This document shows, piece after piece, positions 8,120-59,806 of a DNA stretch of 64,000 bases; within the stretch, counting starts at the first letter, position 1, and each line of letters begins with the position of its first letter. This DNA comes from Verrucomicrobiia bacterium. GTDB lineage: Bacteria; Verrucomicrobiota; Verrucomicrobiia; Limisphaerales; UBA11358. Made by a program: the position numbers and the translations under genes. Below the pieces are notes generated by a model. The model saw only the letters and a list, made by a program, of their open reading frames with translations. It was not told where the DNA came from and searched no databases. The stretch lies in assembly GCA_036498725.1 (NCBI GenBank), contig DASYEY010000126.1, positions 3,089 through 67,088 on the forward strand. Direction: 5' to 3'.

Positions 8120-8230
8120 TTTTCAACTAATAATCTCAATCCCATTGCTTGAAAGAAGCGATGGGATTTTCATTTAGGGTCTTTTTCTCAATTTTGTGGC
8201 GCGCTTTTGTAGTCGGATATTCTTTTTCAC

Positions 8231-8283
8231 CGCCTGACGCTGCGCTCGGCGACGATTTTGGCCGCAGCACAGCCAAAGCCACC
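8231..8283 (+). repeat. Intergenic ~52-nt hairpin repeat, family B, copy 1
   Basis: 'CGCCTGACGCTGCGCTCGGCGACGATTTTGGCCGCAGCACAGCCAAAGCCAC'. Near-identical copies lie at 59661-59713 (same orientation) and 55750-55801 (reverse complement). Contains complementary arms GCTGCGC/GCGCAGC and CTTTGGC/GCCAAAG. Confidence 0.85.
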
Positions 8284-8362
8284 GGTTGCGCCACATGCCT
8301 TGACACTTTCCCGGCCTTTAGGATTGCGGTAATCTGTCTTCATTCAATTCCGTCTGATTTGG

Positions 8363-35083: not shown

Positions 35084-35875
35084 TCAGCTTGGAAATTTTA
35101 ACTCCCATGTTTGTGGGTTGCGAAAGCGAGCGCTACTAAATGGCCAATCTTCAGGCGTATGGCAAAGTTTTGCCTTTATCGGATTATTTTCGATATAGCG
35201 CATAGCTTTCTGCGTTTGTTCTGAATCCCGCATATAGGTGTCCCAGTAGTCCATTTGCCAAAAATCACCAGTGCGTACCAGCAGCTTGTTCGCAGTGACG
35301 GCGGTAAAGGATTTCCAATTCTGAATTATCTTTAAAAGTGGCGTAGTGTTCACTTTGATCAACGCATGAACATGATTCGGCATCACGACCCAAGCTAGCA
35401 GATCAAACCGTTGGCCGTGATGAAAGCACATGGCTTTTTCCACTAGCGCAGCGATGTGCGGATTCCGGAGGAAACATTCGCCATGGCCTCGGTCGATGTA
35501 TTCCTCCAGTTTCCTGTGTTGTTCACGGGCGGCGTCATGACGGTGAGCAAGGCTGTTAATACGTTCGGGCGAAGCAATGCTTCGCGCTCCAGCTTGGGCT
35601 TCTTCACCCGGCGCAGCGGAACGCGGAGCATTGCTCCGCTCGGCGGCCAGCAAAGACTTCCACTCTCCACGCTGCGAAGCTGGCAAAGAATCCCATAGTC
35701 GAAACGTAACAAATTGAACCAAGCCGGGCTTGTCGCAATGTGGTAGATAGCCACGTTCATGCCAGCCTTTAAAATCTTGATTTTTTGCACCTGGTGGGAG
35801 TGGCACACTCCACGCTTGCTTTTCAGCGACGAGGCGGCGCAGGTGTTCGCGCTTGGATTGAGGCGGATGTTCCAT
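35084..35875 (-). CDS. REP-associated tyrosine transposase (RAYT; IS200/IS605-like Y1 HUH transposase)
   Basis: 'LVQFVTFRLWDSLP'. HUH motif in 'WVVMPNHVHALIKV'. Catalytic Tyr region 'KAMRYIENNPIKAKL'. Flanked on both sides by REP palindromes. ATG at 35875 ('MEHPPQSK') is preferred over the track's TTG at 35935, which lies inside a REP. Confidence 0.8.
   Translation of the reverse strand: MEHPPQSKREHLRRLVAEKQAWSVPLPPGAKNQDFKGWHERGYLPHCDKPGLVQFVTFRLWDSLPASQRGEWKSLLAAERSNAPRSAAPGEEAQAGARSIASPERINSLAHRHDAAREQHRKLEEYIDRGHGECFLRNPHIAALVEKAMCFHHGQRFDLLAWVVMPNHVHALIKVNTTPLLKIIQNWKSFTAVTANKLLVRTGDFWQMDYWDTYMRDSEQTQKAMRYIENNPIKAKLCHTPEDWPFSSARFRNPQTWELKFPS
35569..35639. repeat. REP palindrome doublet located inside the RAYT coding sequence
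   Basis: 'GCGAAGCAATGCTTCGCGCTCC' (35569-35590) and 'GGAACGCGGAGCATTGCTCCGC' (35617-35639). In frame, these encode '...ERSNAPRSAAPGEEAQAGARSIASPE...'. Confidence 0.8.
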
Positions 35876-35926
35876 GGGAGCGTAGAGCGTTACTCTATAT
35901 GATTCGATTGAATCACAAAGGGATTC

Positions 35927-35948
35927 GCGGAGCAATGCTCCGCGCTCC
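35927..35948. repeat. REP palindrome copy upstream of the RAYT gene
   Basis: 'GCGGAGCAATGCTCCGCGCTCC', 52 nt upstream of the RAYT ATG. Confidence 0.85.
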
Positions 35949-36017: not shown

Positions 36018-36824
36018 TCAACCGATCAATTCACGCACCTTTGCGCCGATGTCGCCTTGTTTGACGAGTGATTCGCCCACGAGGATCGCGCTTGCGCCAC
36101 ATTTTTTGACGCGTTCCACATCCGTCCGAGTGTGGATACCGCTTTCGGCAACCAACAGTGACGAGTGATGAGTGACAGGTGATGAGTGTAATTTCGCCGC
36201 AAGTTGTTCCGTTGTGGCCAGGTCCACCTTGAACGTTTTCAAGTTGCGATTGTTCACGCCAATCAGCGCGGGAGAAATCTTCAACGCGCGCGTCAATTCT
36301 TCATCGTCGTGCACTTCCACTAAAACCGCGAGGCCAGCTTCGATGGCGAGTGAATGGAATTTTTGCAACTGTTCATCAGTCAAAATGGCGACGATGAGCA
36401 GGATGGCATCCGCGCCCCATTCAATGGCCTCCAGGATTTGCCGTTCATCAATGATGAAATCTTTCCGCAATAACGGCAGCTTTACGGCAGCACGGATTTG
36501 GCGAAGATAATCCAGTGATCCTTGGAAAAATTGTTCATCGGTCAAAACCGAAAGGCAGCTTGCGCCCGCCGCTTCGTATTCTTTGGCGATGCGAACGGGA
36601 TCGAAGTTCGGGCAAATGACACCCATGGAGGGTGAGGCCTTTTTTACTTCGGCGATCAGTCCGATGGTGCCACCGGATGGATGCTTTAGGGCAGAAATGA
36701 AATCGCGCCGTTCGCCATGTTCCAGCATCGCATCGCGCAGGTCACCGGCGGCAATGATGCGGGCCGGAAGCTTGGCGACTTCCAGTTTCTTTTGTTCAAC
36801 GATGGTTTCTAAGATGTTTGCCAC
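36018..36824 (-). CDS. trpC: Indole-3-glycerol-phosphate synthase
   Basis: 'GLIAEVKKASPSMG', 'CLSVLTDEQFFQGS', 'PLLRKDFIIDERQI', 'IGVNNRNLKTF'. The only plausible start is GTG 36824-36822, which lies inside the left inverted repeat of the neighbouring cassette. Confidence 0.9.
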   Translation of the reverse strand: MANILETIVEQKKLEVAKLPARIIAAGDLRDAMLEHGERRDFISALKHPSGGTIGLIAEVKKASPSMGVICPNFDPVRIAKEYEAAGASCLSVLTDEQFFQGSLDYLRQIRAAVKLPLLRKDFIIDERQILEAIEWGADAILLIVAILTDEQLQKFHSLAIEAGLAVLVEVHDDEELTRALKISPALIGVNNRNLKTFKVDLATTEQLAAKLHSSPVTHHSSLLVAESGIHTRTDVERVKKCGASAILVGESLVKQGDIGAKVRELIG

Positions 36825-37260
36825 AGAGTCACAGAGAACACAGAGTTAAAGCATCAATCGTTTGATGCCATCTTTGAGCAGACGCGGGTTAAAATTCAAC
36901 AGTAATCCGCGTTTTAATCCGGTTATTTTCAAATAAGCTAATAATTGCGCTTCAAAGACCGGATCAAATCTTTCCACGCTTTTGAGTTCAATGATAACTA
37001 ATTTTTCGACTACCAAGTCCAGCCGGTATTCTCCAATCACCTGATTCTTATAGGTAATGGGAACAATCAACTGCTGCTCAAAATTCAAACCCGCTATTCG
37101 CAGTTCTATGCAGAGAGCAGATTCATAAGTGGATTCCAATAAACCTGGGCCAAGCGTCCGATGAACTTCAATCGCGCAACCGATAATTTTCTCAGTTAGC
37201 GGATCACGATCCTCTGAAAATTCCAAGTTCATTTCTCTGTGCGCTCTGTGACTCTGTGGC
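36820..37260 (-). mobile_element. 441-bp GxxExxY gene cassette bounded by 26-bp terminal inverted repeats made of three CACAGAG heptads
   Basis: The left end is 'GCCACAGAGTCACAGAGAACACAGAG' (36820-36845). The reverse complement of the right end (37235-37260) is 'GCCACAGAGTCACAGAGCGCACAGAG', giving 24/26 identity. The cassette fills the prfB-trpC gap. Confidence 0.5.
36846..37232 (-). CDS. GxxExxY family protein (PD-(D/E)XK nuclease superfamily)
   Basis: 'IGCAIEVHRTLGPGLLESTYESALCIEL' contains G-L-L-E-S-T-Y. 'YRLDLVVEKLVIIELK' is the core. ATG at 37232 ('MNLEFSEDRD') is preferred; the track's longer N-terminus 'MPQSHRAHRE' is a translation of the heptad repeat. Confidence 0.8.
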   Translation of the reverse strand: MNLEFSEDRDPLTEKIIGCAIEVHRTLGPGLLESTYESALCIELRIAGLNFEQQLIVPITYKNQVIGEYRLDLVVEKLVIIELKSVERFDPVFEAQLLAYLKITGLKRGLLLNFNPRLLKDGIKRLML

Positions 37261-37271
37261 AAAAATGAAAA

Positions 37272-39907: not shown

Positions 39908-39988
39908 GTTGAGGTTATAGTTAAAACCGCCCTGATTTTCCCGAATTTACAAAACTAGGAATAATTCGCTCCGTTTGCAGCTAAAAAG

Positions 39989-40746: not shown

Positions 40747-41023
40747 ATGCGCGCAGGAAATCAAAATACTTTGCGATATGTAGTCATTTGCCCATGGGCA
40801 AGCACGAGTCGCCTCAAGCTAAAAGGATACCGAGGGAATGCGTTGATTAGGGATTTGTTGCCGGGTATGGGTAAAAATAGTTGTTGCGTTTAGCGGTATT
40901 TGCCCGTAAATAAAGGCTGTCAAAGGTTCAGTTCCGGGGGCGATGGCGCACCGGACAATTTCTAAAATTCACTTTTCCAGCAATTTTTCGGAAGGGTTTC
41001 AAGCCTTTGGACACACATTTATT

Positions 41024-42178
41024 ATGAGCGAAACGCAAGCTAACGGCGAAAAGCCGTCCGGTCCCAATCCCAATTACGGTTCAGGTTATCTCGAAATCTC
41101 CGAAAAAGGTTTCGGATTCCTCCGCACCGCGCAAAATCATTTTCATCCCAAGCCGACCGATATCTTCGTCACGCCGGATACCATCCGCCGCAATTTTCTG
41201 CGCGAAGGCAGCTTTATTGAAGGCGCGACGCAGCCGCCGCATCGCGGCACCAGCCCGCAACTCAAGACTGTGGACAAGGTGAACGGCATGGTTTTTCAGG
41301 AATACACCAAGGCCGTCCGCTTTGAAAATTTGACCAGCATTGATCCAATTGAAAAATTCAATCTGGAAACCGCGCCGGATGTTTTGGAAACGCGCGTGAT
41401 TGACCTGGTCACGCCGATCGGCAAGGGCACGCGCGGTCTCATTGTCGCGCCGCCGCGCACCGGCAAGACCACCATTCTCAAACAGATCTGCAATGCTGTC
41501 ACGACGAACCATCCCGACGTGCACGTGATGGTCCTGCTGATAGATGAACGTCCCGAAGAAGTCACGGACTTTCAACGCTCGGTGAAGGCTGAAGTCGTCG
41601 CTTCCTCGAATGACATGGAATTGGAAACGCACGTCCGCCTTTCGCGGTTTATGATCGAACGTTGCCGTCGAATCGTTGAATCCGGCAAGGACGTTTTCGT
41701 GTTGATGGATTCGCTCACGCGTATCGCCCGCGCTTACAACTCCGTTCACGGTGGTTCCGGCCGCACGATGACCGGCGGGGTGGACGCGCGCGCCTTGGAA
41801 ATTCCGCGCAAGATGTTTGCCTCCGCACGCAAGATTGAGAACGGCGGTTCGCTGACCATTCTCGCCACCGCCCTCGTGGATACCGGTTCGCGCATGGATG
41901 AACTGATCTTTCAAGAGTTCAAGGGCACCGGCAATATGGAATTGATTTTGGACCGCAAGCTGTCCGACCGGCGTCTGTTCCCGGCGATTGACATCCCGAA
42001 ATCCGGCACGCGCAAGGAAGAAAAATTGTTCGCGGCAAAAAACCTCGAGGCCATCCGCAAACTTCGCCGCACGATGGTGGATTTGAACCCCATCGAAGCG
42101 ATGGAGACGCTTACCGCTGCGCTCAAGAAAAACAAGACCAACGATGAGCTGCTCGCGAAGTTGGAAAAAAACGCGTGA
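41024..42178 (+). CDS. rho: Transcription termination factor Rho (short N-terminus)
   Basis: 'GSGYLEISEKGFGFLR' (CSD-like RNA-binding domain). Walker A 'APPRTGKTT'. 'VLLIDERPEEVTD'. 'RLFPAIDIPKSGTRKEE'. ATG at 41024 ('MSETQ') is preferred; the track start 40943 adds 27 non-homologous residues. Confidence 0.9.
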   Translation: MSETQANGEKPSGPNPNYGSGYLEISEKGFGFLRTAQNHFHPKPTDIFVTPDTIRRNFLREGSFIEGATQPPHRGTSPQLKTVDKVNGMVFQEYTKAVRFENLTSIDPIEKFNLETAPDVLETRVIDLVTPIGKGTRGLIVAPPRTGKTTILKQICNAVTTNHPDVHVMVLLIDERPEEVTDFQRSVKAEVVASSNDMELETHVRLSRFMIERCRRIVESGKDVFVLMDSLTRIARAYNSVHGGSGRTMTGGVDARALEIPRKMFASARKIENGGSLTILATALVDTGSRMDELIFQEFKGTGNMELILDRKLSDRRLFPAIDIPKSGTRKEEKLFAAKNLEAIRKLRRTMVDLNPIEAMETLTAALKKNKTNDELLAKLEKNA

Positions 42179-42213: not shown

Positions 42214-43212
42214 ATGCGACCACCTGACGATTCAACCAAAGCAAGTTCGCCGCTATCGCGTCCGCCGCTGGAGCGGATGCTGCGCATCCATCAGGCGTTG
42301 CTGGCGGACAAGTTTCCCAACGCCAGCAAGCTCGCGCGCGAAATTGAGGTTTCGACCAAGACCATCCATCGCGACATCGAGTTCATGCGTGACCGGCTGA
42401 ATCTGCCGATCGAATTCAAAGCCGGCCGCAATGGTTATTTCTACGACGGCGAAGTCAGCGGGTTTCCCACGATGCAGATTACCGAGGGCGAAATTTTCGC
42501 GCTCGTCGTCGCGGAAAAGGCCTTGCAACAATATCGCGGCACCAGTTTTGAAAAGCCGCTGCTTAGCGCCATCCGCAAAATGGAGCAGTCCCTGCCGGAC
42601 ACGATTTCCCTCAACCTGGCCGACATTGAGCAGACCATTTCCTTCCGCACCCGCGCTGAGCCGATTCTGGATCTGAAAATTTTTGACGTGCTCGCCCGGG
42701 CTGTCGCGCAACGCCAGCAGTTGGAACTGCATTATCGCAAGCCCGGCCAATCAGCGGAGAAACGCCTGGTGGATCCGTATCATCTCGCCAACATCAATGG
42801 CGAATGGTTTCTCTTTGCCTTTGATCACGCGCGCAAAGACATCCGCAATTTTGTTCCGGCGCGCATCCAATCCGTGCAACCCACGGGAAAGTTTTTTGAG
42901 CGCACGGAAAAGTTCTCCCTGGAAAAACGGTTGCGCGACAGCTTCGGCGTTCACGCCGGCGAAGGGAAATATGAGGTGGCCATCCGCTTCACGCCGCGCG
43001 CAGCTGATTATATTCGTGAAAAAAAATGGCACGCTTCGCAGACCTTGCGTGATTTGAAGGATGGCGGCGCCGAACTCACGCTGAAACTTTCCAGCCTGGG
43101 TGAAATCGAACGCTGGGTTTTGAGCTGGGGCGGCGAGGCTACAGTTTTGCAACCGCCCGAGCTGGTGTCCGCCATCCGGGCCGCCGCTGAAAAAATTCTG
43201 GCATCGGCCTGA
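42214..43212 (+). CDS. HTH + WYL domain transcriptional regulator
   Basis: N-terminal 'LERMLRIHQALLADKFPNASKLAREIEVSTKTIHRDIEFMRDRL' (HTH_11/DeoR-like). WYL-type core 'RLVDPYHLANINGEWFLFAFDHARKDIRNFVPARI'. WCX-like C-terminus. Confidence 0.8.
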   Translation: MRPPDDSTKASSPLSRPPLERMLRIHQALLADKFPNASKLAREIEVSTKTIHRDIEFMRDRLNLPIEFKAGRNGYFYDGEVSGFPTMQITEGEIFALVVAEKALQQYRGTSFEKPLLSAIRKMEQSLPDTISLNLADIEQTISFRTRAEPILDLKIFDVLARAVAQRQQLELHYRKPGQSAEKRLVDPYHLANINGEWFLFAFDHARKDIRNFVPARIQSVQPTGKFFERTEKFSLEKRLRDSFGVHAGEGKYEVAIRFTPRAADYIREKKWHASQTLRDLKDGGAELTLKLSSLGEIERWVLSWGGEATVLQPPELVSAIRAAAEKILASA

Positions 43213-43216
43213 CCGT

Positions 43217-43338
43217 CGCTACAATTTTTAGGTAGGGCCAAGCTGCCACTTGGCCCATTATTTATCAACGACGCGGGTGGTTTGCTCGTCACCTGATCTT
43301 TTTGCCACGCGACGGCGAAGCAGCAACTTCGCCCTACC
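43217..43338 (+). repeat. ~120-nt structured repeat, family C, copy 1 (upstream of the giant gene)
   Basis: 'CGCTACAA..GGTAGGGCCAAGctgccaCTTGGCCC....GGCGAAGcagcaaCTTCGCCCTACC'. The outer complementary ends are GGTAGGGC/GCCCTACC, enclosing two internal hairpins. Colinear with 50641-50757. Confidence 0.8.
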
Positions 43339-43610
43339 AGCCATCGCTTCGGTGGGGTTATCTGCTGCCATGGTTATCTTCCCGAATTCGCGAAAATATG
43401 TGTAATTCGCGTAAAACGCCTTTCCTTCGCCTCCTTAGCGCTCTTAGCGCGACATTCTGGATTCTGACTTTTGCCTTCTGGTCTTATTAAGTGTCTTAAA
43501 TTTGGAAATTCATTGCCGTTTGAGACAAATCTGCCAGACTCGGCGCGAATCAAGAACAAGGATTTCTGAAGCAAAATCTCAGAAAACCATCAGAAGGGAA
43601 AAGAGAAAAA

Positions 43611-46600
43611 ATGAAAAAGGGTTTTTCGTGGGCACGTGTTTTCAATTTTGGCACTCAAAAATCGTTTGCTTTATTAGCGTTAGGGCTAGGACTGCTAATC
43701 AGCTTCACTCTCCCCAATGCCGTTGCCCAAACGCCGCCGCTGAGTTTTCAAGGCCGTATCCTGGTCGGCGGCAAATCTTTCAATGGCGCGGGCCAATTCA
43801 AGTTTGCACTGGTAGATAGCACGGGCGCGACCACTTTCTGGAGCAACGACGGCACGAGCACGGCCGGTTCGCAACCGACGGGCTCAGTCTCGCTGACGCT
43901 GACGAACGGGCTGTATGCGATCTTGCTGGGCGACACGACCGTGTCGGGCATGACACAGTCAATCAGCGCGGATATCTTCACGAACAGCGATGTGCGGTTG
44001 CGGGTATGGTTCAACGACGGTACGCACGGATTTGAACAACTGACGCCGGATCAGCGACTGGCGGCTTCGGGTTATGCCTTGATGGCAGGGAGTGTGGCTT
44101 CGGTTTCGGCGCAAAATATCACCGGGGCGATTTCACTGGCACAACTGCCGGTGAGTGTGGTGACGAATGGTGCAGCAGGCGTGAACATTTCCGGCACGTA
44201 CAGCGGCAATGGGGCGGGCGTAACCAATGTGGATCTCCAGACGACTGAGTCACATAGTGCCATCAATTGGGTGCAAAATTGGGGAGCTTTCACATTGGTA
44301 TCTTCGCCGTTCGCTGGTTCTGGTCCAAGTTCGATCACATCGGCCGATGTCAACGGGGATGGGAAACCGGATTTGATCACCGCCGCGGCTGGCAGCAGCC
44401 AGTTGAATGTGCTGACGAATGACGGCTGGGGCGGTTTTGTCTCTGCAGGTGCCTACGCGGTAGGTAATACGCCTGTCTTTGTGACTTCAGCTGACGTGAA
44501 TGGCGATGGCAAACCGGATTTGATCAGTGCTAATTTTCAAGCCAATAGTTTAACGGTATTGACCAATGACGGCAGCGGTGGTTTCGCGGTGTCAGGCACC
44601 TTGACCGTCGGCGATCATCCGTATGCCGTTGCCGCCGCGGATATCAACAATGATGGCAAGGTGGATTTGATCTCGGCTGATCGCTATGCCAATACCTTGA
44701 CGATACTGACGAATGATGGCAGCGGTGGTTTTGCGGTTTCCAGCACATTGGTGGTGGGTGCGCAGTCCTTGTTTGTGCTCGCCGCGGATGTCAACGGCGA
44801 CAGCAAACCTGATTTGATCAGCGTTAACTATGATGATGCGACGTTGATTGTGCTGACCAATAATGGCAGCGGCGGTTTTGTGCCGGCTTCCACCAACGCG
44901 GTTGGTTTTCGTCCGCAGGCAGTCGTGGCTGCGGATGTGAATGGTGATGGCAAGCTGGATTTAATTTCTGCCAACGGCGGTGCCAATACGCTGACGGTGT
45001 TGACCAATGACGGCAGTGGTGGTTTTGCATTGTCCGGGACCTTGCCGGTGGGCAGCCATCCCTATGGAATCACAGTGGCGGATGTCAACGGCGACGGTAA
45101 AATCGATTTGATTTCAGCAAATAACGGTGACAATACACTGACGGTATTGACCAACAATGGCGCCGGTGGTTTTGGCTTGGCGGCTTCGCTCGCTGTGGGC
45201 GCTGGCCCGGTCTCGGTCACAGCTGCTGATATCAATCGTGACGGTCAGGTAGATCTGATCAGTGCCAATCAGAATAACGGCACCCTTTCGGTGCTGACCA
45301 ATACGCTGATTTCAATTAAAGCGACTTTTCAGGGCACTTTCTCCGGTGATGGCGCAAGTGTGAGCAATCTGAACGCTTCGCAAATCTCCAGCGGTACGCT
45401 CGCGCTGGCGCAATTGCCGGCCAATGTAGTGACCAATCATGCCACGGGTGTCACTTTGAGCGGAACCTTCAATGGTGATGCCGGCGGCTTGACGAATTTG
45501 AACGCGTCGCAGATTTCCAGCGGCACGATTGCGTTGGGGCAATTGCCCGCCGGCGTGCTGACGAATGGTGCCAGCGGCGTCAATATCAACGGCACGTTTA
45601 GCGGCAATGGCGCAGGTATCACCAATATGGATCTAACGACTGCCAATGCTTATGGCTCGATCGGCTATGTGCTTCATCGGGGCGTTTTTCAATTTGCGGC
45701 CTCAATTGTGCCGGGCGTTGATACGTATTTCGTCATTTCGGCGGACATCAACGGGGATGGTAAACCGGATGTGATCTCTGTGAGCATTGGCAATAACTCG
45801 TTGATCGTATTGACCAACAATGGCAATGGTGGCTTGGGTCTATTCGCCACGCCAGGCGTGGGCCGCAACCCAAGATCGGTCGTCGCGGCAGATGTTAATG
45901 GTGATGGCAAACTAGATTTAATCAGCGCGAATCAGACCGATTCCACCCTGACGATATTGACCAATGACGGTCTCGGTGGGTTTGCGTTTTCTGCCACCCG
46001 CGCGGTCGGTGCCAGCCCTTTTGGGGTGGCGGCCGCAGATGTAAACGGCGACGGCAAGGTGGATCTGATCAGTGCGAATGCGAATGACTCGACCCTGACA
46101 ATCTTGACCAACAACGGCAGTGGTGTCTTTGTGCTTTCCGCCACCGTTAGCGTGAGTAACAGCCCCGTTTCAGTCGTCGCGGCGGATGTCAACGGCGACG
46201 GTAAGGTGGATTTGATTTCTGCGAATAACGGTGATGCCACGCTGACGGTATTGACGAACAATGGCAGCGGTGGCTTTATGCTTTCCACCACTGTAAACGC
46301 TGGTGTGAACCGATATCCGAATGCGCTCGCGGCGGTAGATGTCAATGCGGATGGTAAAGTGGATTTGATTTCTGCAAACCGTGGTGAAAATTCCCTGACC
46401 GTATTTACGAACAATGGCAACGGCGGTTTCGTATTTTCATCTGCCGTTGGCGTCGGCAACAATCCCGATGGCATTACGGTGGCCGACGTGAACGGGGATG
46501 GGAAGCCGGATTTTGTTGTTGCGAACTTTTATGGCAGTTCACTAACGGTGGTGACCAATGCGGGTAACGGCGGGTTTGCGTTATCTTCCACCATCGGCAC

Positions 46601-49600
46601 GAGCTATTACGCTTATTCGGTCGCGGCGGCGGACCTCAACGGCGATGGCAAGCCGGATTTGATCAGCGCGAATTACGATAGCACACTGGAAATATTCACC
46701 AACACCACAACAGCTGACGCAAGTTTTGCCGGCAGTGGTAGCAGCTTGACCGGCCTGAATGCTTCGCAAATCACCAGCGGCACGCTGGCGCTGGGGCAAT
46801 TGTCTGGAGCGGTGGTGACGAACGGGGCGAGTGGTGTGAGTATCGCTGGTACTTTCACCGGTGATGGCACGATGTTGACGAATATTCCCCTGGCCGGGCT
46901 GGATGCCCGCAGCGGCCTTGTAGTAACGACCAATTTCTATCTATTCAATGCGTCAGCGACGATACCAACGGGACAGGAACCATTTTGGGTCACGGCGGCG
47001 GATGTCAACGGTGACGGTCTGCCCGATTTGATCAGTGCCAATCGTTTTGATGATTCGCTGACGGTGTTCACCAATAATGGCAGCGGCGGGTTTATTCCCG
47101 CTTCCACAAACTTCCTCAATTACGGCGCTGGCCCGGCGTTTGTGCTGGCGACAAATGTGGATAATGTCGGTGGTGTGGACCTGATCAGTGCCAATGAAGA
47201 TGACGGCACGTTGACGGTGTTGACCAATAGCGGCGACGGCACGTTTGGCGTGGCTTCCACGGTCTATGTCGGTGGCAGTCCAGAAGTGATCGCGGCGGCG
47301 GATTTTAATGATGACGGAGTGTTGGATCTGGCGTGTGCCAATTATGCCGATGATTCGCTGGCGATATTTTTTGGCAACGGCGATGGTACATTCACTTTTA
47401 CCAACACCGTTTCATGTGGCAGCGGCCCGGTTTCTGTGGCAGTGATTGATTTGAACGGGGATTCAAGCCTCGATTTGGTCGTGGCCAATTATAATGACAA
47501 CACGCTGGTGGGGCTTACGAATGATGGCACTGGTAATTTTACGGCGGCCTTTGCCAATGAAGTGGGTGAGGGTCCGAGTTCGGTTGTGGTGGGTGATGTG
47601 AATAATGATGGTTTGTCGGATTTGATCAGTGCCATTCAATATGACGGTACCGTAATCGTGTTGACGAATAATGGTGACGGCACATTTACGGCGGCCTCCA
47701 CGAACAACGTCGGGGCGTACCCTTTTTCTGCGACGGTGGCGGATGTGAATGGCGACGGCAACCTGGATGTGATCAGTGCCAATTCCTTCTATCTGGACAA
47801 TACCTTGAGCGTATTGTTGGGCAATGGCGACGGCAGCTTCACGGCGGAAACGGGTTCACCCTACGCGACGGGTTCCGGGCCTTTGACAGTGGCGGTGGCG
47901 GATGTGAATGGTGACAGTCATCTTGATTTGGTCAGCGTCAATGAATACGACAATACGCTCACTGTCCTGACGAATACGGCAGGTGTGCCGGTTTATGTCA
48001 CTCACTTTACGGGTGACGGTTCGGGTTTGACGGGGTTGAATGGCTCGCAGATCACTAGTGGCACGATTCCTGAGACGCGTCTGCCCAACAGCGTGACGGC
48101 TTTGCCCAATCTCCTCCAGATTTATAATTATCTGCCGGCCTATGTTCTGGATCCGGATCTGGCCTTGCGGGATGGCTACCAGACCTTTACCGGCGCAAAT
48201 AATTTTAATAATCCGAACAATACTTTTAATGGCACGTTCACCGGCGATGGAGCGGGTGTGTCGAATGTAAATCTCCTGACGGCTAATTCCGTGGGAGCGA
48301 TCAACTGGGGTACGAATCATCTGACGACATTTACACCGGGTTCCTCGCCCGGCGTAGGCGCAGGACCTCTGGGTCTCGTGACGGCGGACGTGAATGGCGA
48401 TAGCAAAATGGATTTGATCACCGCCAACTCAGGCGATAACACGCTGACGGTGCTAACGAACAATGGGTGTGGCGGGTTTGTGACGTCAGGAACTTATCCG
48501 GTTGGCGATTTTCCTTATTCGGTCACGGCGGCGGATGTGAACAACGATAACAAAGTGGATTTGATCTGCGCGAACAATCTCGGCAACACACTGACAGTAT
48601 TGACGAACGATGGTAGTGGCGGATTTGTGATGTCGGGAACTTATAGTACGGCGGGCAGCGGTCCGATATCGGTCACGGCGGCGGATGTCAACGACGATGG
48701 AGCCAAGGATTTGATTGTCGCTATCTATGCCACCAGCACGGTGCAGGTGCTGACAAATGATGGTTATGGCGGATTTGTGGCGTCCGGAACCTATCATGTG
48801 GGCGCTAATAGCACGTCCAGTCCGAATTATCCGTTTTTTGTCACGACAGCAGATGTGAACGGCGATGGCGAAGTGGATTTGATCACTGCGAACGCAGGTG
48901 ACAACTCGCTGACGGTGCTGACGAACGATGGTAGTGGCGGATTTGTAGAGTCGGGAACTTATCCGGTGAACCTCCAGCCTTGGTCGGTTGCAGCGGCAGA
49001 TGTGAACGGCGATGGCAAGGTGGATTTGATCAGTGCCAACGAATATTATGGATCCAGTTCACTGACGGTGCTGACGAATGATGGCAGCGGCGGGTTTGCG
49101 ACGTCGGAAAATTATTTCGTGCCTGGCAATCCTGCTTCTGTTGTCGCTGCCGATGTCAACGGTGACTGCAAAATGGATTTGATCTGCGCGACCTATGGTG
49201 ACAATACCCTGACGGTGCTCACGAACAATGGGGCCGGCGAATTTGCGATGATGGGAGCTTATTCCGTGGGTGACTCAGATCAGTCGGTGGTTGCGACGGA
49301 TGTCAATGGTGACGGCCGGGTGGATTTGATCAGTGCAAATTATAGCGATAACACGCTAACGGTGCTGTTGAATCAAGTCAGTACCAATTATACGCCATCG
49401 TTTGCCGGAAATTTCACCGGCGATGGCAGCGGGCTGGCCAATCTAAATGCTTCCCAATTGACCGGTGTTATCCCATCAACCACTTTGCCGGCATTGGTGA
49501 TTACGAATGGCGCGAGCGATGTGACTATCACCGGCACGTTCAGCGGCGATGGCAGCGGGTTGACCAATCTTGATTACAATAACATTGCCAATCCTCCGGC

Positions 49601-50585
49601 CATTCCTTCAATCGACGGTTTGGTCACAGCCTCCGTGACGAATGGCTTGGTCACGGCGAGTGTGACAAATGGGCTGGCGTCAATCAGTTATGTCATCGCG
49701 GCGACGAATGGGCTGGTTAAAGCTTCCGTCACCAACGGTTTGGTTACGGCTGCCGTCACGAATGGCCTGGCGTCAACAGCCTATGTCATTGCAGCGACCA
49801 ACGGTTTGGCGACGACCACTTTTGTCACCGCTGGTTTTACGGCCAATAACAACGGGCTGGCGACGAATCTGATGGTCAATACTTTGGCGGCCAGCAATCT
49901 GTTTTTGAGTGGAGCGATGAATGCCCTGGCACAACCGATTTATTTGCGGGGTTCCAATGACGTGAATCACGGTATCGGCTACGCTTCCGCCGCGACGAAC
50001 TTCACGGCCTTAAATCCGCCTGACGGTCCGATGATGTGGGGTTACGGTGGCGGCGCTTTGGGCAGCATGAATGGCGGTGCAAAGTTGGGGTTGGTCTGGA
50101 CGGCGACGGGCGTCGGCATCGGTCTCAACGCCACCAATCCAACGTCGACGTTGCAAGTCAATGGCAATGCCACGGTCAATGGCAACTTGACCAATACCGG
50201 CAGCATGATTGTTGGTGGCAATATTACTACCAGCGGTGGCACCGTTACCGCCAGTTCTGTCCGCATTGGGGCTAATTATGCCCCCAACAGCACCGAAAAC
50301 CTACGCATCGTGCGGGGACATGCCATCTACAGTGGCTCAACTGTTTTAACCGCTGGTGCCGGGTTCTCGGTGACTCGCAGCAGCGTGGGGCAGTATTCAA
50401 TCACGTTCTCGCCCGGTTTCAGTGACACGCCGATGTTGACCATAACGCCTTGGGGCGGATCGCCGACCATGGCAGTAGTGGGCTTCACTCTCTCAACCGG
50501 ACCCTGTCCGGTGAGTTTTTATAACACATCTGGAGTGCTGACTGATCCGACAGCCTTTGATTTCATCGCCGTGGGTACTCCGTGA
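43611..50585 (+). CDS. Giant secreted protein (2,324 aa): tail-fibre-like N-terminal module and stalk motifs carrying 4 x 7 FG-GAP/VCBS propeller blades, with a C-terminal tip domain
   Basis: Signal peptide '...LLISFTLPNAVAQ'. 28 units matching '(A/V)ADVNGDGK(P/V)DLISAN..(D)NTLTVLTN(D/N)GSGGF'. Linker motifs 'TFSGNGAGVTN(V/L/M)(D/N)L' and 'LNASQISSGTLALAQLP'. Confidence 0.85.
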   Translation: MKKGFSWARVFNFGTQKSFALLALGLGLLISFTLPNAVAQTPPLSFQGRILVGGKSFNGAGQFKFALVDSTGATTFWSNDGTSTAGSQPTGSVSLTLTNGLYAILLGDTTVSGMTQSISADIFTNSDVRLRVWFNDGTHGFEQLTPDQRLAASGYALMAGSVASVSAQNITGAISLAQLPVSVVTNGAAGVNISGTYSGNGAGVTNVDLQTTESHSAINWVQNWGAFTLVSSPFAGSGPSSITSADVNGDGKPDLITAAAGSSQLNVLTNDGWGGFVSAGAYAVGNTPVFVTSADVNGDGKPDLISANFQANSLTVLTNDGSGGFAVSGTLTVGDHPYAVAAADINNDGKVDLISADRYANTLTILTNDGSGGFAVSSTLVVGAQSLFVLAADVNGDSKPDLISVNYDDATLIVLTNNGSGGFVPASTNAVGFRPQAVVAADVNGDGKLDLISANGGANTLTVLTNDGSGGFALSGTLPVGSHPYGITVADVNGDGKIDLISANNGDNTLTVLTNNGAGGFGLAASLAVGAGPVSVTAADINRDGQVDLISANQNNGTLSVLTNTLISIKATFQGTFSGDGASVSNLNASQISSGTLALAQLPANVVTNHATGVTLSGTFNGDAGGLTNLNASQISSGTIALGQLPAGVLTNGASGVNINGTFSGNGAGITNMDLTTANAYGSIGYVLHRGVFQFAASIVPGVDTYFVISADINGDGKPDVISVSIGNNSLIVLTNNGNGGLGLFATPGVGRNPRSVVAADVNGDGKLDLISANQTDSTLTILTNDGLGGFAFSATRAVGASPFGVAAADVNGDGKVDLISANANDSTLTILTNNGSGVFVLSATVSVSNSPVSVVAADVNGDGKVDLISANNGDATLTVLTNNGSGGFMLSTTVNAGVNRYPNALAAVDVNADGKVDLISANRGENSLTVFTNNGNGGFVFSSAVGVGNNPDGITVADVNGDGKPDFVVANFYGSSLTVVTNAGNGGFALSSTIGTSYYAYSVAAADLNGDGKPDLISANYDSTLEIFTNTTTADASFAGSGSSLTGLNASQITSGTLALGQLSGAVVTNGASGVSIAGTFTGDGTMLTNIPLAGLDARSGLVVTTNFYLFNASATIPTGQEPFWVTAADVNGDGLPDLISANRFDDSLTVFTNNGSGGFIPASTNFLNYGAGPAFVLATNVDNVGGVDLISANEDDGTLTVLTNSGDGTFGVASTVYVGGSPEVIAAADFNDDGVLDLACANYADDSLAIFFGNGDGTFTFTNTVSCGSGPVSVAVIDLNGDSSLDLVVANYNDNTLVGLTNDGTGNFTAAFANEVGEGPSSVVVGDVNNDGLSDLISAIQYDGTVIVLTNNGDGTFTAASTNNVGAYPFSATVADVNGDGNLDVISANSFYLDNTLSVLLGNGDGSFTAETGSPYATGSGPLTVAVADVNGDSHLDLVSVNEYDNTLTVLTNTAGVPVYVTHFTGDGSGLTGLNGSQITSGTIPETRLPNSVTALPNLLQIYNYLPAYVLDPDLALRDGYQTFTGANNFNNPNNTFNGTFTGDGAGVSNVNLLTANSVGAINWGTNHLTTFTPGSSPGVGAGPLGLVTADVNGDSKMDLITANSGDNTLTVLTNNGCGGFVTSGTYPVGDFPYSVTAADVNNDNKVDLICANNLGNTLTVLTNDGSGGFVMSGTYSTAGSGPISVTAADVNDDGAKDLIVAIYATSTVQVLTNDGYGGFVASGTYHVGANSTSSPNYPFFVTTADVNGDGEVDLITANAGDNSLTVLTNDGSGGFVESGTYPVNLQPWSVAAADVNGDGKVDLISANEYYGSSSLTVLTNDGSGGFATSENYFVPGNPASVVAADVNGDCKMDLICATYGDNTLTVLTNNGAGEFAMMGAYSVGDSDQSVVATDVNGDGRVDLISANYSDNTLTVLLNQVSTNYTPSFAGNFTGDGSGLANLNASQLTGVIPSTTLPALVITNGASDVTITGTFSGDGSGLTNLDYNNIANPPAIPSIDGLVTASVTNGLVTASVTNGLASISYVIAATNGLVKASVTNGLVTAAVTNGLASTAYVIAATNGLATTTFVTAGFTANNNGLATNLMVNTLAASNLFLSGAMNALAQPIYLRGSNDVNHGIGYASAATNFTALNPPDGPMMWGYGGGALGSMNGGAKLGLVWTATGVGIGLNATNPTSTLQVNGNATVNGNLTNTGSMIVGGNITTSGGTVTASSVRIGANYAPNSTENLRIVRGHAIYSGSTVLTAGAGFSVTRSSVGQYSITFSPGFSDTPMLTITPWGGSPTMAVVGFTLSTGPCPVSFYNTSGVLTDPTAFDFIAVGTP
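44320..45303 (+). repeat. FG-GAP propeller block 1 (7 blades; approximate bounds)
   Basis: Seven consecutive ~48-aa units, from 'ITSADVNGDGKPDLITAA' to 'TAADINRDGQVDLISANQNNGTLSVLTNT'. Confidence 0.7.
45711..46706 (+). repeat. FG-GAP propeller block 2 (7 blades; approximate bounds)
   Basis: Seven units, from 'VISADINGDGKPDVISVS' to 'AAADLNGDGKPDLISANYDSTLEIFTNT'. Confidence 0.7.
46966..47977 (+). repeat. FG-GAP propeller block 3 (7 blades, most divergent; approximate bounds)
   Basis: Seven units, from 'VTAADVNGDGLPDLISAN' to 'AVADVNGDSHLDLVSVNEYDNTLTVLTNT'. Several blades end 'GDGTF' instead of 'GSGGF'. Confidence 0.7.
48352..49376 (+). repeat. FG-GAP propeller block 4 (7 blades; approximate bounds)
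   Basis: Seven units, from 'LVTADVNGDSKMDLITAN' to 'VATDVNGDGRVDLISANYSDNTLTVLLNQ'. Confidence 0.7.
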
Positions 50586-50640
50586 GGTGAAAAATGTCCT
50601 GTGCGTTTGCCGGTTTACTGGTATCTAGGCGGCCGCAGGC

Positions 50641-50757
50641 CGCTACAACTTATCGGTCGGGCCAAGTTGCCGCTTGGCCCATTTACCAATGACTCGGGAA
50701 GTTTATTCGTTCTCTGATCTTCTCGTCACGCAGGCGAAGCAGCAGCGTCGCCCTACC
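50641..50757 (+). repeat. ~120-nt structured repeat, family C, copy 2 (downstream of the giant gene)
   Basis: 'CGCTACAA..GGTCGGGCCAAGttgccgCTTGGCCC....GGCGAAGcagcagCGTCGCCCTACC'. Same orientation as copy 1. The hairpin-1 stems are identical while the loops differ. Confidence 0.8.
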
Positions 50758-50814: not shown

Positions 50815-52191
50815 TTAGACAAATTTCCCCGGATTCAAAATGCCGTGCGGATCGAGCGCGGCTTTGATGGTGCGATGCAGTTCGCGCGAGTTTTCCGAAA
50901 CTGCCAGCGGCCACCAACGTTTCTTGGCGAGGCCGATGCCGTGTTCGCCCGTGATCGCGCCGCCTTCAGCAATGATCCAACGAAACAATTTATCCAGACA
51001 CGCTTCAGAACGTTTCCGGGCACCGGGTTGCGTCAAATCCACCATGACATTCGTATGGATATTGCCATCGCCTGCGTGGCCGAAACAGGCGAGCTGCAGG
51101 CCATGCTTCTTCTGTAACTGCGCGGCGAACTTGAATAGTTGTTCCAATTTTCCGCGCGGCACCACGATGTCCTGGTTCAATTTCGTCAGGCCGGTGTCGC
51201 GCAGTGCGTAGGAAAATTCGCGGCGAATCTGCCAGACGGCTTCGCATTGTTCATTGCCAAAACCGCGTTCCACAAACGACGGCGTTTGGGTGCGGATAAT
51301 TTTTTCCACGGCGGCGATTTCGCTACGCACAGAATTTTCCTGTCCGTCCAGTTCCACGATCAAATGTGCTTTGCAGCCCAGCAAACGTTTGCTCCCGGTG
51401 CGTTTAGCGGCGGCAGCGAGCGTGAATTGATCGGCTAATTCCGCGGCGCACGGCAGAAAGCCGGCGGCGAAAATCGCCTGCAATGCACGCACGGCTGAAT
51501 TCATCGAATCAAAACCGACCGCGAGATTCGCGCGAAACGGAGGGAGCGGAATCAGTTTCAACGTGGCTTCAGTGACGACCCCCAGCAAACCCTCCGAACC
51601 GACGAACAGCCGATGCAGATCAAAACCGGTTTTATTCTTATGCGTGCGTCCGCCGAGACGGCAGATTTTTCCATTGGCCAGCACGACTTCGAGGCCGAGC
51701 ACATAGTCGCGCGTGACGCCGTATTTGAGACAGCGCGGGCCGCCGGCATTGGTGGCGATGTTGCCGCCGAGCGAATTATTCGCGCGGCTGGCCGGGTCGG
51801 GTGGGTAAAAAAGTTTCTGCTTTTCGACCGTCGCCTGAAATTCCGCCGTATTGACGAACGGCTGGACGACGGCGACAAAATCTTGCGCGTTGATCTCGCG
51901 AATCTTATTCATCCGCTCCAACGACAGCGCAATGCCGCCACGCATCGGCACGCAGCCGCCGACGTAACCGTGGCCTGCACCGCGCGGCGTGACGGGGATT
52001 TTATGCTTGTTGGCAAACGCGAGGATTTTCGAGACGGATTGCGTCGAGCGGGGCAGAGCGACGGCCTCGGGTTGATGCGTGGCGAACCATTTATCACCCG
52101 CATATTTTGCGAGCGTGGCCGGTTCGAGGACAATTTCACCGGGCAGCTTTTTTTTGAGCTGCCGTAATGGATTTGAGTTGGAAGACGTCAT
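50815..52191 (-). CDS. FAD-linked oxidase (GlcD / D-lactate dehydrogenase-like)
   Basis: FAD_binding_4 motifs 'PVTPRGAGHGYVGG' and 'LGGNIATNAGGPR'. C-terminal 'FGHAGDGNIHTN' and 'ITGEHGIGLAK'. Confidence 0.8.
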   Translation of the reverse strand: MTSSNSNPLRQLKKKLPGEIVLEPATLAKYAGDKWFATHQPEAVALPRSTQSVSKILAFANKHKIPVTPRGAGHGYVGGCVPMRGGIALSLERMNKIREINAQDFVAVVQPFVNTAEFQATVEKQKLFYPPDPASRANNSLGGNIATNAGGPRCLKYGVTRDYVLGLEVVLANGKICRLGGRTHKNKTGFDLHRLFVGSEGLLGVVTEATLKLIPLPPFRANLAVGFDSMNSAVRALQAIFAAGFLPCAAELADQFTLAAAAKRTGSKRLLGCKAHLIVELDGQENSVRSEIAAVEKIIRTQTPSFVERGFGNEQCEAVWQIRREFSYALRDTGLTKLNQDIVVPRGKLEQLFKFAAQLQKKHGLQLACFGHAGDGNIHTNVMVDLTQPGARKRSEACLDKLFRWIIAEGGAITGEHGIGLAKKRWWPLAVSENSRELHRTIKAALDPHGILNPGKFV

Positions 52192-55749: not shown

Positions 55750-55801
55750 GTGGCTTTGGCTGCGCTGCGGCCAAAGTCGTCGCCGAGCGCAGCGTCAGGC
55801 G
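55750..55801 (-). repeat. Family B hairpin repeat, copy 2 (reverse-complement orientation)
   Basis: The reverse complement reads 'CGCCTGACGCTGCGCTCGGCGACGACTTTGGCCGCAGCGCAGCCAAAGCCAC'. Confidence 0.85.
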
Positions 55802-56006
55802 CCGAAATGTTGTGGGTCCAACTGCCACGAAATCGTCCTCGTGCTCATCGTCGCCCTCGCTCTCGCCCGCTGGTGAAAATTCGAGGACGAGGGCGAGGAC
55901 GACGATGAGGATGAACTGGATGTTAAAACTGATTGTTCAGGCACGCTTTCAGCAATTCAGGGAGAGCGTGTCCTGCCGTTTATAAACTGAGTTCCCGCGA
56001 TTTTTC

Positions 56007-59504: not shown

Positions 59505-59660
59505 TGCCGGTTTGGCGGTCGTTGCCTGCGTTCGGTGCTTTGGTCTGGTTTAGGGCGCGTTTTCAAACTTTAGCATAGGTGGTGGGTTGCGCTGCGACCC
59601 CTTATGACTGCGTAGCAATCCCTTTGTGGTGTGGTTGGTTACCGGACGTTTTCTTTTCGT

Positions 59661-59713
59661 CGCCTGACGCTGCGCTCGGCGACGACTTTGGCCGCAGCGC
59701 AGCCAAAGCCACC
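59661..59713 (+). repeat. Family B hairpin repeat, copy 3
   Basis: 'CGCCTGACGCTGCGCTCGGCGACGACTTTGGCCGCAGCGCAGCCAAAGCCACC'. Flanking similarity to copy 1 extends about 25 nt on each side. Confidence 0.85.
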
Positions 59714-59806
59714 AACTGCGCCATCGGGTTGTGCCTTGCCTTGGGCGATTGGTGGAACTTTTTAGATGTGCAGCTGGGCAAGTTGAAGTAGGTTTATGGG
59801 AAGGGA

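Follow-up and report, generated by a model that had tools for sequence, protein, structure and literature searches.

The GTAG-tagged REP superfamily, in which a short hairpin carries an unpaired tag, includes families from Opitutus terrae, a member of the Verrucomicrobia, and the roles of REPs have been summarised in the same work (Di Nocera et al., 2013; PMC3733652). In Pseudomonas fluorescens SBW25, REPs are paired in inverted orientation into REPINs, which accompany a single-copy RAYT gene (Bertels & Rainey, 2011; PMC3116915). The corresponding E. coli elements, REP/BIME, are associated with TnpA-REP, for which a structure is available (4ER8; Messing et al., 2012; PMC3479197).

A REPIN is a non-autonomous element, and a RAYT is a REP-associated Y1 HUH tyrosine transposase. 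A hairpin repeat scattered in uncultured Verrucomicrobiota of soil and peat (order Limisphaerales) is assigned here to the known REPIN-RAYT class, and a gene likely to encode its cognate transposase is named. The assignment accounts for similar structured elements found elsewhere in the genome and in the order.

The two copies and their surroundings

Two copies of the repeat (family D17), both on the + strand and spaced 7424 nt from start to start, are present in the window, by which the whole 64,000-nt stretch analysed is meant. They align end to end in MAFFT, with 78% identity over 122/117 nt in BLAST and 79% identity for the cores in a global alignment. The sequence-only reading had described a pair of ~120-nt structured repeats in the same orientation that enclose a leader and a giant gene. 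The repeats proved to be real and to lie where it had placed them, and what they enclose is indeed the leader and a 2324-aa FG-GAP gene. The structural details also hold in both copies: each starts with CGCTACAA, has outer ends GGT(A/C)GGGC...GCCCTACC, and contains a first hairpin GGGCCAAG-N6-CTTGGCCC, the loop of which differs between the copies, and a second hairpin GGCGAAG...TCGCC. Mismatches are scattered and the longest identical runs reach 12–13 nt. A 14-nt 5′ flank is common to the two copies and absent from other family copies; the bases bordering the copies differ by eye (CCGT...AGCC for one, AGGC...GGCG for the other).

Table 1. Features of the repeat pair and its neighbourhood (positions in the window).
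Feature	Position	Strand	Description
WYL gene	42214..43212	+	HTH-WYL-WCX regulator; conserved left neighbour in relatives; stop codon ~4–5 nt before copy 1
Copy 1	43217..43338	+	REPIN-type doublet: 14-nt 5′ extension (CGCTACAATTTTTA), arm A, spacer, arm B
Copy 1 arm A	43231..43256	+	REP hairpin GGTAGGGCCAAGCTGCCACTTGGCCC with GTAG tag; then ATTATTTAT, the T-rich family tail
Copy 1 arm B	43314..43338	-	Inverted REP; - strand reading GGTAGGGCGAAGTTGCTGCTTCGCC
Paralogous segment	43489..50617	+	Paralogous to C286:6489-14151; proximal leader, giant gene and ~30 nt of 3′ flank
Giant FG-GAP gene	43611..50585	+	2324 aa; stop 56 nt before the start of copy 2
Copy 2	50641..50757	+	Sister REPIN doublet, 78–79% identity to copy 1, same orientation
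Copy 2 arm A	50655..50680	+	REP hairpin GGTCGGGCCAAGTTGCCGCTTGGCCC; tag degenerated from GTAG to GTCG
Copy 2 arm B	50733..50757	-	Inverted REP; - strand reading GGTAGGGCGACGCTGCTGCTTCGCC
FAD-linked oxidase gene	50815..52191	-	Convergent; its stop 57 nt past the end of copy 2

The copies fill the sole non-coding gaps on either side of the giant gene, and the segment between them contains the giant FG-GAP ORF alone, without a recombinase gene. Both lie just outside the segment paralogous to C286, the left-hand gap being ~150 nt or 38 nt and the right-hand gap ~20 nt. The folding z-score is -2.6 on the + strand of each copy. The - strand of copy 1 can form one long hairpin (-51.9 kcal/mol, z = -4.6), a signal that is weaker in copy 2; because the z-scores disagree between the copies, no call is made on the functional strand or on RNA versus DNA. 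A scan of the whole window against Rfam 15 returned no curated RNA family at gathering score.

The repeat family and a candidate transposase gene

In the 4.6-Mb draft genome, nhmmer detects ~59 REP units, spread over 46 loci and 38 contigs, counts that are probably too low for repeats in a draft MAG of 297 contigs and 91% completeness. The bracketing pair is thus real but not unique. A unit is a hairpin with a 5′ GTAG tag and has the form GGTAGGGC-stem-CTGCYG-stem-GCC, or more fully GGTAGGGC-NNAG-CTGCYG-CTNN-GCC. Two such hairpins in inverted orientation around a spacer form a doublet, and 12 doublets have their GTAG tags outermost; the spacer is 50–60 nt in copies 1 and 2 and ranges from ~10 to 95 nt across the family.

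The 52 distinct units align without gaps, with conservation of at least 90% at G1, G2, G5–C8 and in the loop. Of the cells in the 9-bp stem, 92.7% are paired. Double-sided stem compensations number 38, compared with 13.2 ± 2.5 in shuffled data, and none of 500 shuffles reached the observed covariation; the covarying stem pairs are CAAAG/CTTTG, CGGAG/CTCCG, CCAAG/CTTGG, CAGAG/CTCTG and CGTCG/CGACG. The structure that had been proposed from conserved stems and varying loops in two copies therefore holds family-wide.

By crude ORF calls, 34 of the 40 classifiable loci are intergenic. Family abundance is modest, and doublets are 45–79% identical, mostly 45–75%; current activity of so small and old a family is doubtful. 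Neither transposition nor excision nor an insertion polymorphism was observed for copies 1 and 2. Neighbour pairs within 8 kb occur on six contigs; ~3 such pairs are expected by chance. Within this family of small, parasitic hairpin repeats (REPINs) scattered through the genome, copies 1 and 2 are ordinary members.

This is a family of the order Limisphaerales: the pattern GGTAGGGCNNAGCTGCNGCTNNGCC is present in 56 of 201 genomes and 40 of 118 genera, and the reversed pattern, used as a control, gave 0 matches everywhere. A search of 40 relatives for full-length copies yielded none, with arm-sized matches only, and an exact-pattern scan of metagenome contigs for the CCAAG-subfamily arm, in a set from which records close to this genome may be missing, gave 0 matches. 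Tandem REP arrays are seen in two relatives (G184 and G057).

Inspection of inverted REP pairs 0.3–1.4 kb apart located a RAYT-like gene of 159 aa (C163:17219-17698), on a different contig from the repeat pair, which, judged by its sequence and setting, is likely the cognate transposase gene of the family. Its protein matches NCBIfam NF047646 REP_Tyr_transpos at E 4.5e-20 and 72 bits, under the curated cut-off of 80 bits, and Pfam Y1_Tnp at E 0.056 only. The best PDB match is E. coli TnpA-REP (4ER8, E 1e-5); the HUH (PDHLHLF) and Tyr (YVRENP) motifs align to H59/H61 and Y115 of that structure, and an Asn aligns to N119. The gene lies between inverted family REPs (C163:17145-17169, +, and 17705-17729, -) and is single-copy, with one own-genome match at E ≤ 1e-8. 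The same REPs stand beside the gene, in the same layout, in 14 of 18 orthologues from other genomes (≥63% identity), and more distant homologues are without them. Across genomes, the REP pattern occurs in 15 of the 21 with a RAYT orthologue versus 41 of the 180 others (Fisher P = 1.4e-5). By analogy with E. coli TnpA-REP, the RAYT would recognise the GTAG tag and hairpin in single-stranded DNA and spread or maintain the repeats.

Other candidates for the RAYT were rejected. The seven own-genome matches to Y1_Tnp (PF01797) either are on contigs that lack these REPs or are separated from them by kilobases. Of 30 Y1_Tnp loci in ten REP-rich relatives, none is enclosed by these REPs; at one, in L119, a single stray REP lies ~1.3 kb from the gene.

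The suggestion in the sequence-only reading that REP-type elements flank the gene by happenstance was essentially right on identity, since GTAG-tagged REP doublets and a likely cognate RAYT are found in the same genome.

Origin of the pair and of the gene between them

Among 60 genomes of the genus, the closest homologue of the giant gene is the in-genome paralogue at C286, with 78% identity versus at most 62% elsewhere. That paralogue is bracketed by a different direct repeat of ~98 nt, and no REPIN of this family is present at its locus. The 7.4-kb segment, for which a comparison with relatives had been proposed, is absent from the site between the WYL and FAD-oxidase genes in the closest relatives. 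The two genes are directly convergent there, with a gap of 2–6 nt in five genomes (L031, L033, L038, L051, L061). In four others (L032, L036, L073, L040) the gap contains one family REPIN that points the other way, with arm B first, and in three (L043, L044, L047) it contains other GTAG...CTAC repeats. Because the site is empty, occupied by one opposite REPIN or filled with other inserts, the sequence comparison indicates that the giant surface-protein gene is a recent lineage-specific insertion with a paralogue within the genome. The site is a neat instance of an insertion hot spot, with a turnover of REPINs from several families, of small genes and of giant adhesin-like genes.

Copies 1 and 2 are the closest of the 78 pairs among 13 doublets: they share 79% identity, and no other doublet exceeds 66% with either. 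They have in common the subfamily stems CCAAG/CTTGG and CGAAG/CTTCG, the spacer sequence and the 5′ extension, and no third member of the CCAAG subfamily was found in the own genome, in 40 relatives or in the metagenome exact-pattern scan. That the copies are mutually closest suggests local duplication. One copy would derive from its partner, or the two from a parent nearby, through a short-range duplication that took in the 14 nt of 5′ flank. The giant gene is an intragenomic paralogue inserted at the recurrent hot spot where the WYL and FAD-oxidase genes converge. Most likely the bracket geometry merely follows from the settling of REPINs in 3′ intergenic gaps and is not the work of a dedicated cassette mechanism, and any influence on transcripts, such as 3′ hairpins or termination, would be secondary. 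The REPINs of the relatives, being single and opposite, or missing, argue for independent REPIN arrivals. Taken together, the REPIN-type identity of both copies, their sisterhood and a by-product origin form the best explanation of the locus, and one that is probably correct.

A mechanistic tie between the REPIN pair and the arrival of the gene, after which homologous recombination between the direct repeats could remove or swap the 7.4-kb cassette, appears unlikely. A circle carrying the giant gene and a REPIN might have recombined with a resident REPIN in Campbell fashion, or the gene might have landed between tandemly duplicated REPINs. Such an event would fit the absence of the segment from the closest relatives, in several of which a single REPIN occupies the site, as well as sister copies in direct orientation with a common 14-nt 5′ flank and placed tens of bases from the ends of the C286-paralogous segment. 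Duplications of REPINs in tandem, flanks included, have been described in SBW25 (PMC3116915), tandem REP arrays exist in G184 and G057, and the C286 paralogue has its own bracketing repeat. However, the opposite orientation of the REPINs in L032, L036, L073 and L040 means that these are neither orthologues of copies 1 and 2 nor products of their recombination, and the C286 source locus is without a REPIN of this family. With 78% identity and identical runs of at most 12–13 nt, the copies are also a poor RecA substrate today. Of the cassette geometry first proposed for the 7.4 kb, a lineage-specific insertion at a hot spot flanked by sister copies stands, whereas excision or exchange through the repeats is hypothetical.

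A more doubtful proposal is that the copies are kept at these two sites because they act on RNA, serving the WYL and giant-gene transcripts as terminators, insulators or 3′-end stabilising hairpins. REPs of E. coli stabilise mRNA upstream of them. Both copies here lie directly 3′ of + strand genes with arm A in sense; this arm has a T-rich tail after its GC-rich 9-bp hairpin, positions 43235-43256 are flagged as terminator-like in a consensus scan, and both + strands share the z-score of -2.6. The ATTATTTAT tail is nevertheless weak and not a proper U-tract, and the lack of an Rfam match also counts against such a role. Across the genome, arm A runs in sense with the gene upstream in 11 cases and antisense to it in 8 (P = 0.65). 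Relatives have either an empty orthologous site or an inverted element there, so no site-specific function is conserved. Of the earlier idea of terminator- or insulator-type REPs, the REP identity is retained, whereas a dedicated terminator role finds no support in the orientation of arm A across the family.

Pure coincidence, with the copies inserted independently of each other from a distant master copy and the largest gene flanked by chance, is improbable. The family is dispersed and intergenic, and ~0.5 genes flanked on both sides are expected by chance per genome (46^2/4000, for 46 loci and ~4000 intergenic regions); the counts of neighbour pairs (six contigs, ~3 expected) point the same way. 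Yet these copies are the single most similar of 78 pairs, share stems, spacer and 5′ extension, and have no third subfamily member in the genome, the 40 relatives or the metagenome scan.

There is equally little reason to favour a 7.5-kb ‘giant REPIN’, whose ends would be the two same-orientation REPINs and in which RAYT or inter-REPIN recombination would move or swap a surface-protein cassette at the hot spot downstream of the WYL regulator. REPINs that bracket and perhaps move a gene-sized cassette would be the sole unusual part of the locus, if true, and are unsupported so far; REPINs would then be portable ends for gene-sized cargo. An att-site or integrative element is rejected because the segment has no recombinase gene and the repeats have diverged (78%).

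Comparison with described repeat systems

As with Campbell-type direct repeats or att sites, same-orientation repeats exactly bracket a segment missing from the site in relatives. Unlike them, the repeats come from a dispersed family and have only 78% identity, the segment lacks a recombinase, and REPINs occupy the site independently in relatives.

The C163 protein resembles E. coli TnpA-REP in its alignable HUH residues (H59/H61), Y115 and N119, although similarity is low (E 1e-5) and E. coli H123 is a Thr. The repeats share with E. coli REPs a 5′ GTAG followed by a hairpin, and the gene is bracketed by inverted REPs in the REPtron layout; the near-perfect 9-bp stem differs in being without the bulge needed by the E. 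coli enzyme (PMC3479197).

The GTAG-REP superfamily offers a close match: an unpaired GTAG at one end of a 6–9 bp stem with a short loop, subfamilies with alternative complementary stem residues, RAYT association, and dimers, often heterodimers, with 20–100 bp spacers. The loop of the present family is, in contrast, more conserved than the stem order-wide, a comparison made with the superfamily as a whole (PMC3733652).

SBW25 REPINs differ in occurring as hundreds of near-identical copies, as against ~46 loci with doublets 45–79% identical here, where the arms are of different stem types (heterodimer) and the host is a Verrucomicrobiota MAG. Both systems nevertheless consist of inverted REPs around a spacer of tens of bases that can form one long hairpin, are dispersed extragenically as singlets, doublets and tandem clusters, and include a single-copy RAYT gene with REPs of its own family on either side (PMC3116915).

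The repeat pair and its dispersed family

Both stretches were re-read and bear out the sequence-only reading, which had described two similar structured copies in the same orientation around the giant gene and its leader. The copies lie with their starts 7424 nt apart and align end to end, with 78% identity by BLAST and 79% in a global alignment of the cores. They are the only full-length copies found by BLAST in the 4.6-Mb, 297-contig draft genome, in which the window corresponds to C126:3089-67088. An Rfam search of the whole window matched no family, and one metagenome scan for an arm of their subfamily gave no matches. A profile built from the two copies detected many weaker matches in the genome, often on both strands. 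The family element consists of arm A (GGTAGGGCAAAGCTGCCGCTTTGCCC, then ATTTATGA, as read from the profile matches), a partly conserved spacer of about 10-95 nt, and an inverted arm B (GGCGGAGCAGCAGCTCCGCCCTACC). In both arms the GTAG tetranucleotide precedes a hairpin whose stem has 9 bp and whose loop has 4 nt. A genome-wide census with a single-unit profile, as the earlier reading had proposed, places the copies in a dispersed family of 59 units at 46 loci, probably an under-count given the draft assembly; reversed-consensus control searches gave no matches. Twelve doublets carry GTAG tags at their outer ends and one is reversed, the remaining units being singlets with a decayed partner.

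Coordinates of the repeats, genes and other features
Feature	Location	Strand	Remark
rho	window 40943-42178		precedes regulator gene
HTH-WYL-WCX regulator gene	window 42214-43212		downstream of rho
Copy 1	window 43217-43338	+	starts 5 nt past regulator stop
Giant gene	window 43611-50585		2324-aa FG-GAP repeat protein; stop 56 nt before copy 2
Copy 2	window 50641-50757	+	ends 57 nt from oxidase stop
FAD-linked oxidase gene	window 50815-52191		convergent
Giant-gene paralogue	C286:6615-14090
~98-nt direct repeats	C286:6313-6410; 14443-14540
Partial ~98-nt copies	window 43376-43434; 39935-39969		giant gene leader; upstream
~60-nt double hairpin	window 8224-8293; 55750-55807; 59654-59723		second copy inverted
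~60-nt double hairpin	C190:21950-22010; C258:8480-8545; C1:34480-34540		source genome
RAYT-like ORF	C163:17219-17698		159 aa
REPs around it	C163:17145-17169; 17705-17729	+; -
283-aa ORF	window 35084-35935	-
PDDEXK_3 gene	window 36846-37262	-	within 36814-37266
~1.15-kb stretches	window 4290-5443; 6075-7234
Secreted-protein genes	L034:14129-14575; 18000-18440		within insert
Tandem REP arrays	G184:C1:820285-821047; G057:C11:100600-101025; G161:C7:161566-162070		other genomes

The earlier claim of a selected structure is strengthened by the family stems, which covary (CAAAG/CTTTG, CGGAG/CTCCG, CCAAG/CTTGG, CAGAG/CTCTG, CGTCG/CGACG). Paired stem cells reach 92.7%, compared with only 33-51% in slid registers, and 38 double-sided changes were observed versus 13.2 +/- 2.5 after shuffling, with none of 500 shuffles equalling the observed value. 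The suggestion of a terminator/insulator-type REP holds for the REP identity; a dedicated terminator role gains no support from the family's orientation. Arm A with its T-rich tail is terminator-like by scan; across the family, however, it lies sense to the upstream gene in 11 cases and antisense in 8, and orthologous sites are often empty of a REPIN (two inverted REP hairpins and their spacer). Neither observation provides evidence for dedicated regulation, and folding of the copies gave an inconsistent strand preference. Incidental effects on 3′ ends are possible.

Across Limisphaerales, the pattern GGTAGGGCNNAGCTGCNGCTNNGCC (≤1 mismatch) is present in 56 of 201 genomes, representing 40 of 118 genera, and its reversed control in none of the 201. 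By their titles, the orthologous loci come from peat, soil and lake MAGs of Limisphaerales or Verrucomicrobia subdivision 3. Some genomes contain same-orientation tandem REP arrays with periods of 123 nt (G184), 134 nt (G057, adjoining a RAYT orthologue) and 240 nt (G161). A second dispersed repeat in the source genome, a ~60-nt double hairpin (TCGTCGCCTGACGCTGCGCTCGGCGACGA + CTTTGGCCGCAGCGCAGCCAAAG) with copies 90-98% identical, sits between arms A and B of long (320-450 nt) REPINs on C190 and C258, so that one repeat family is nested within another.

The giant gene between the copies

Given 46 loci spread over roughly 4000 intergenic regions, chance would leave about 0.5 genes per genome with a locus on each side and would place about 3 neighbour pairs within 8 kb of each other; several such pairs were observed. 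The bracket alone is therefore unsurprising. Chance flanking, raised in the sequence-only reading, thus covers the bracket but not the unusual likeness of the copies. They are the most similar of 78 doublet pairs (79% versus ≤75% for any other), neither exceeds 66% identity to any third doublet, and their subfamily stems and spacer sequence agree, as does a 14-nt 5′ extension absent from other copies. These features argue that one copy arose from the other by local duplication. This may have been part of the giant gene's insertion, through tandem REPIN duplication and then insertion or through Campbell-type recombination, or may have followed it by short-range copying.

Relatives were compared for the 7.4-kb segment at eighty loci with a WYL orthologue. 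In the closest loci reaching the oxidase gene (WYL 77-88% amino acid identity), the FAD-oxidase gene comes next and is convergent. The stop-to-stop gap is 2-6 nt at L031, L033, L038, L051 and L061. It holds one same-family doublet, arm B first and hence opposite to the window copies, at L032, L036, L073 and L040, and at L034 a 7.7-kb insert that carries an FG-GAP gene of 39% identity and lacks REPs. At L043, L044 and L047 it contains palindromic doublets with GTAG...CTAC ends and unrelated stems (e.g., AGTAGCAGCGGATGTAAATCCGCTC...GAGCCGAC..CTCGGCTGCTAC), and several REP families therefore target the convergent site. A small gene for a secreted protein (signal peptide followed by ...YSVDW.KI.GGGG...) occurs once in the gap at each of L041, L054 and L058, and twice within the L034 insert. 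Judged from these varied contents, the gap is a hot spot to which REPINs came independently, and the giant gene is lineage-specific here.

Exchange of leader and giant gene as a cassette through the flanking repeats is a minority possibility. At its present 78% identity the pair is a poor recombination substrate. The inverted orientation of the relatives' single REPINs argues against their being deletion products of such a direct pair. A comparison across 60 species of the genus puts the same-genome paralogue on C286 nearest to the giant gene (N-terminus 78% identical, versus ≤62% elsewhere). The two loci are homologous over 43489-50617 and also at 43385-43434, where another dispersed repeat has a copy; the two REPINs are therefore just beyond the ends of the duplicated segment.

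The paralogue is itself placed between near-identical ~98-nt direct repeats of a different family (TTTCCCGG...GTGTAATTCGC...CATCCGTG...), partial copies of which occur in the window. Elsewhere in the window, a PD-(D/E)XK gene between prfB and trpC is exactly enclosed by 32-nt inverted repeats of CACAGAG heptads (91% complementary), and two stretches, 70-78% identical at about 1790 nt spacing, look like a tandem gene duplication.

A candidate REP-associated transposase

A GTAG followed by a hairpin marks REPs on which REP-associated tyrosine transposases (RAYTs) act. The seven Pfam Y1_Tnp matches in the source genome were rejected as the RAYT, being on contigs without family REPs or kilobases from them. 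So were 30 Y1_Tnp loci from ten REP-rich relatives, none of which is flanked by family REPs both left and right; at one of them, L119, a lone stray REP lies about 1.3 kb away from the gene. Inspection of inverted REP pairs a few hundred bases apart revealed the ORF on C163, a single-copy gene between inverted family REPs. Its NCBIfam hit is NF047646 "REP-associated tyrosine transposase" (E 4.5e-20), at 72 bits slightly short of the curated threshold of 80. Among solved structures the ORF best matches E. coli TnpA-REP (4ER8, E 1e-5), with PDHLHLF aligned on the HUH motif and YVRENP on Y115/N119. It was missing among the Pfam candidates because its Pfam E value is only 0.056.

Orthologues (63-83% identity) were recovered from 18 other sampled genomes, in 14 of which the same GGTAGGG-hairpin REPs adjoin the gene; more distant homologues (L168-L177) have no family REPs beside the gene. 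Of the 201 genomes, 21 have an orthologue, and 15 of these contain the REP pattern, versus 41 of the 180 that have none (odds ratio 8.5, Fisher P = 1.4e-5). The window also encodes a second RAYT-class gene, the 283-aa ORF (NCBIfam REP_Tyr_transpos 96.9 bits, above cut-off; Pfam Y1_Tnp E 1.5e-8), whose flanks lack GGTAGGGC REPs.

The RAYT-like gene, its orthologues and their co-occurrence with the repeats therefore lead us to assign the element to a REP-RAYT system, as a doublet of REPIN type that this system would have mobilized. In E. coli, GTAG is bound base-specifically and is required for cleavage (PMC3479197), and GTAG REP families are already known in Verrucomicrobia (PMC3733652). The two copies are a real feature and add a new member, in Limisphaerales, to the known class of GTAG REPs and REPINs with a RAYT.
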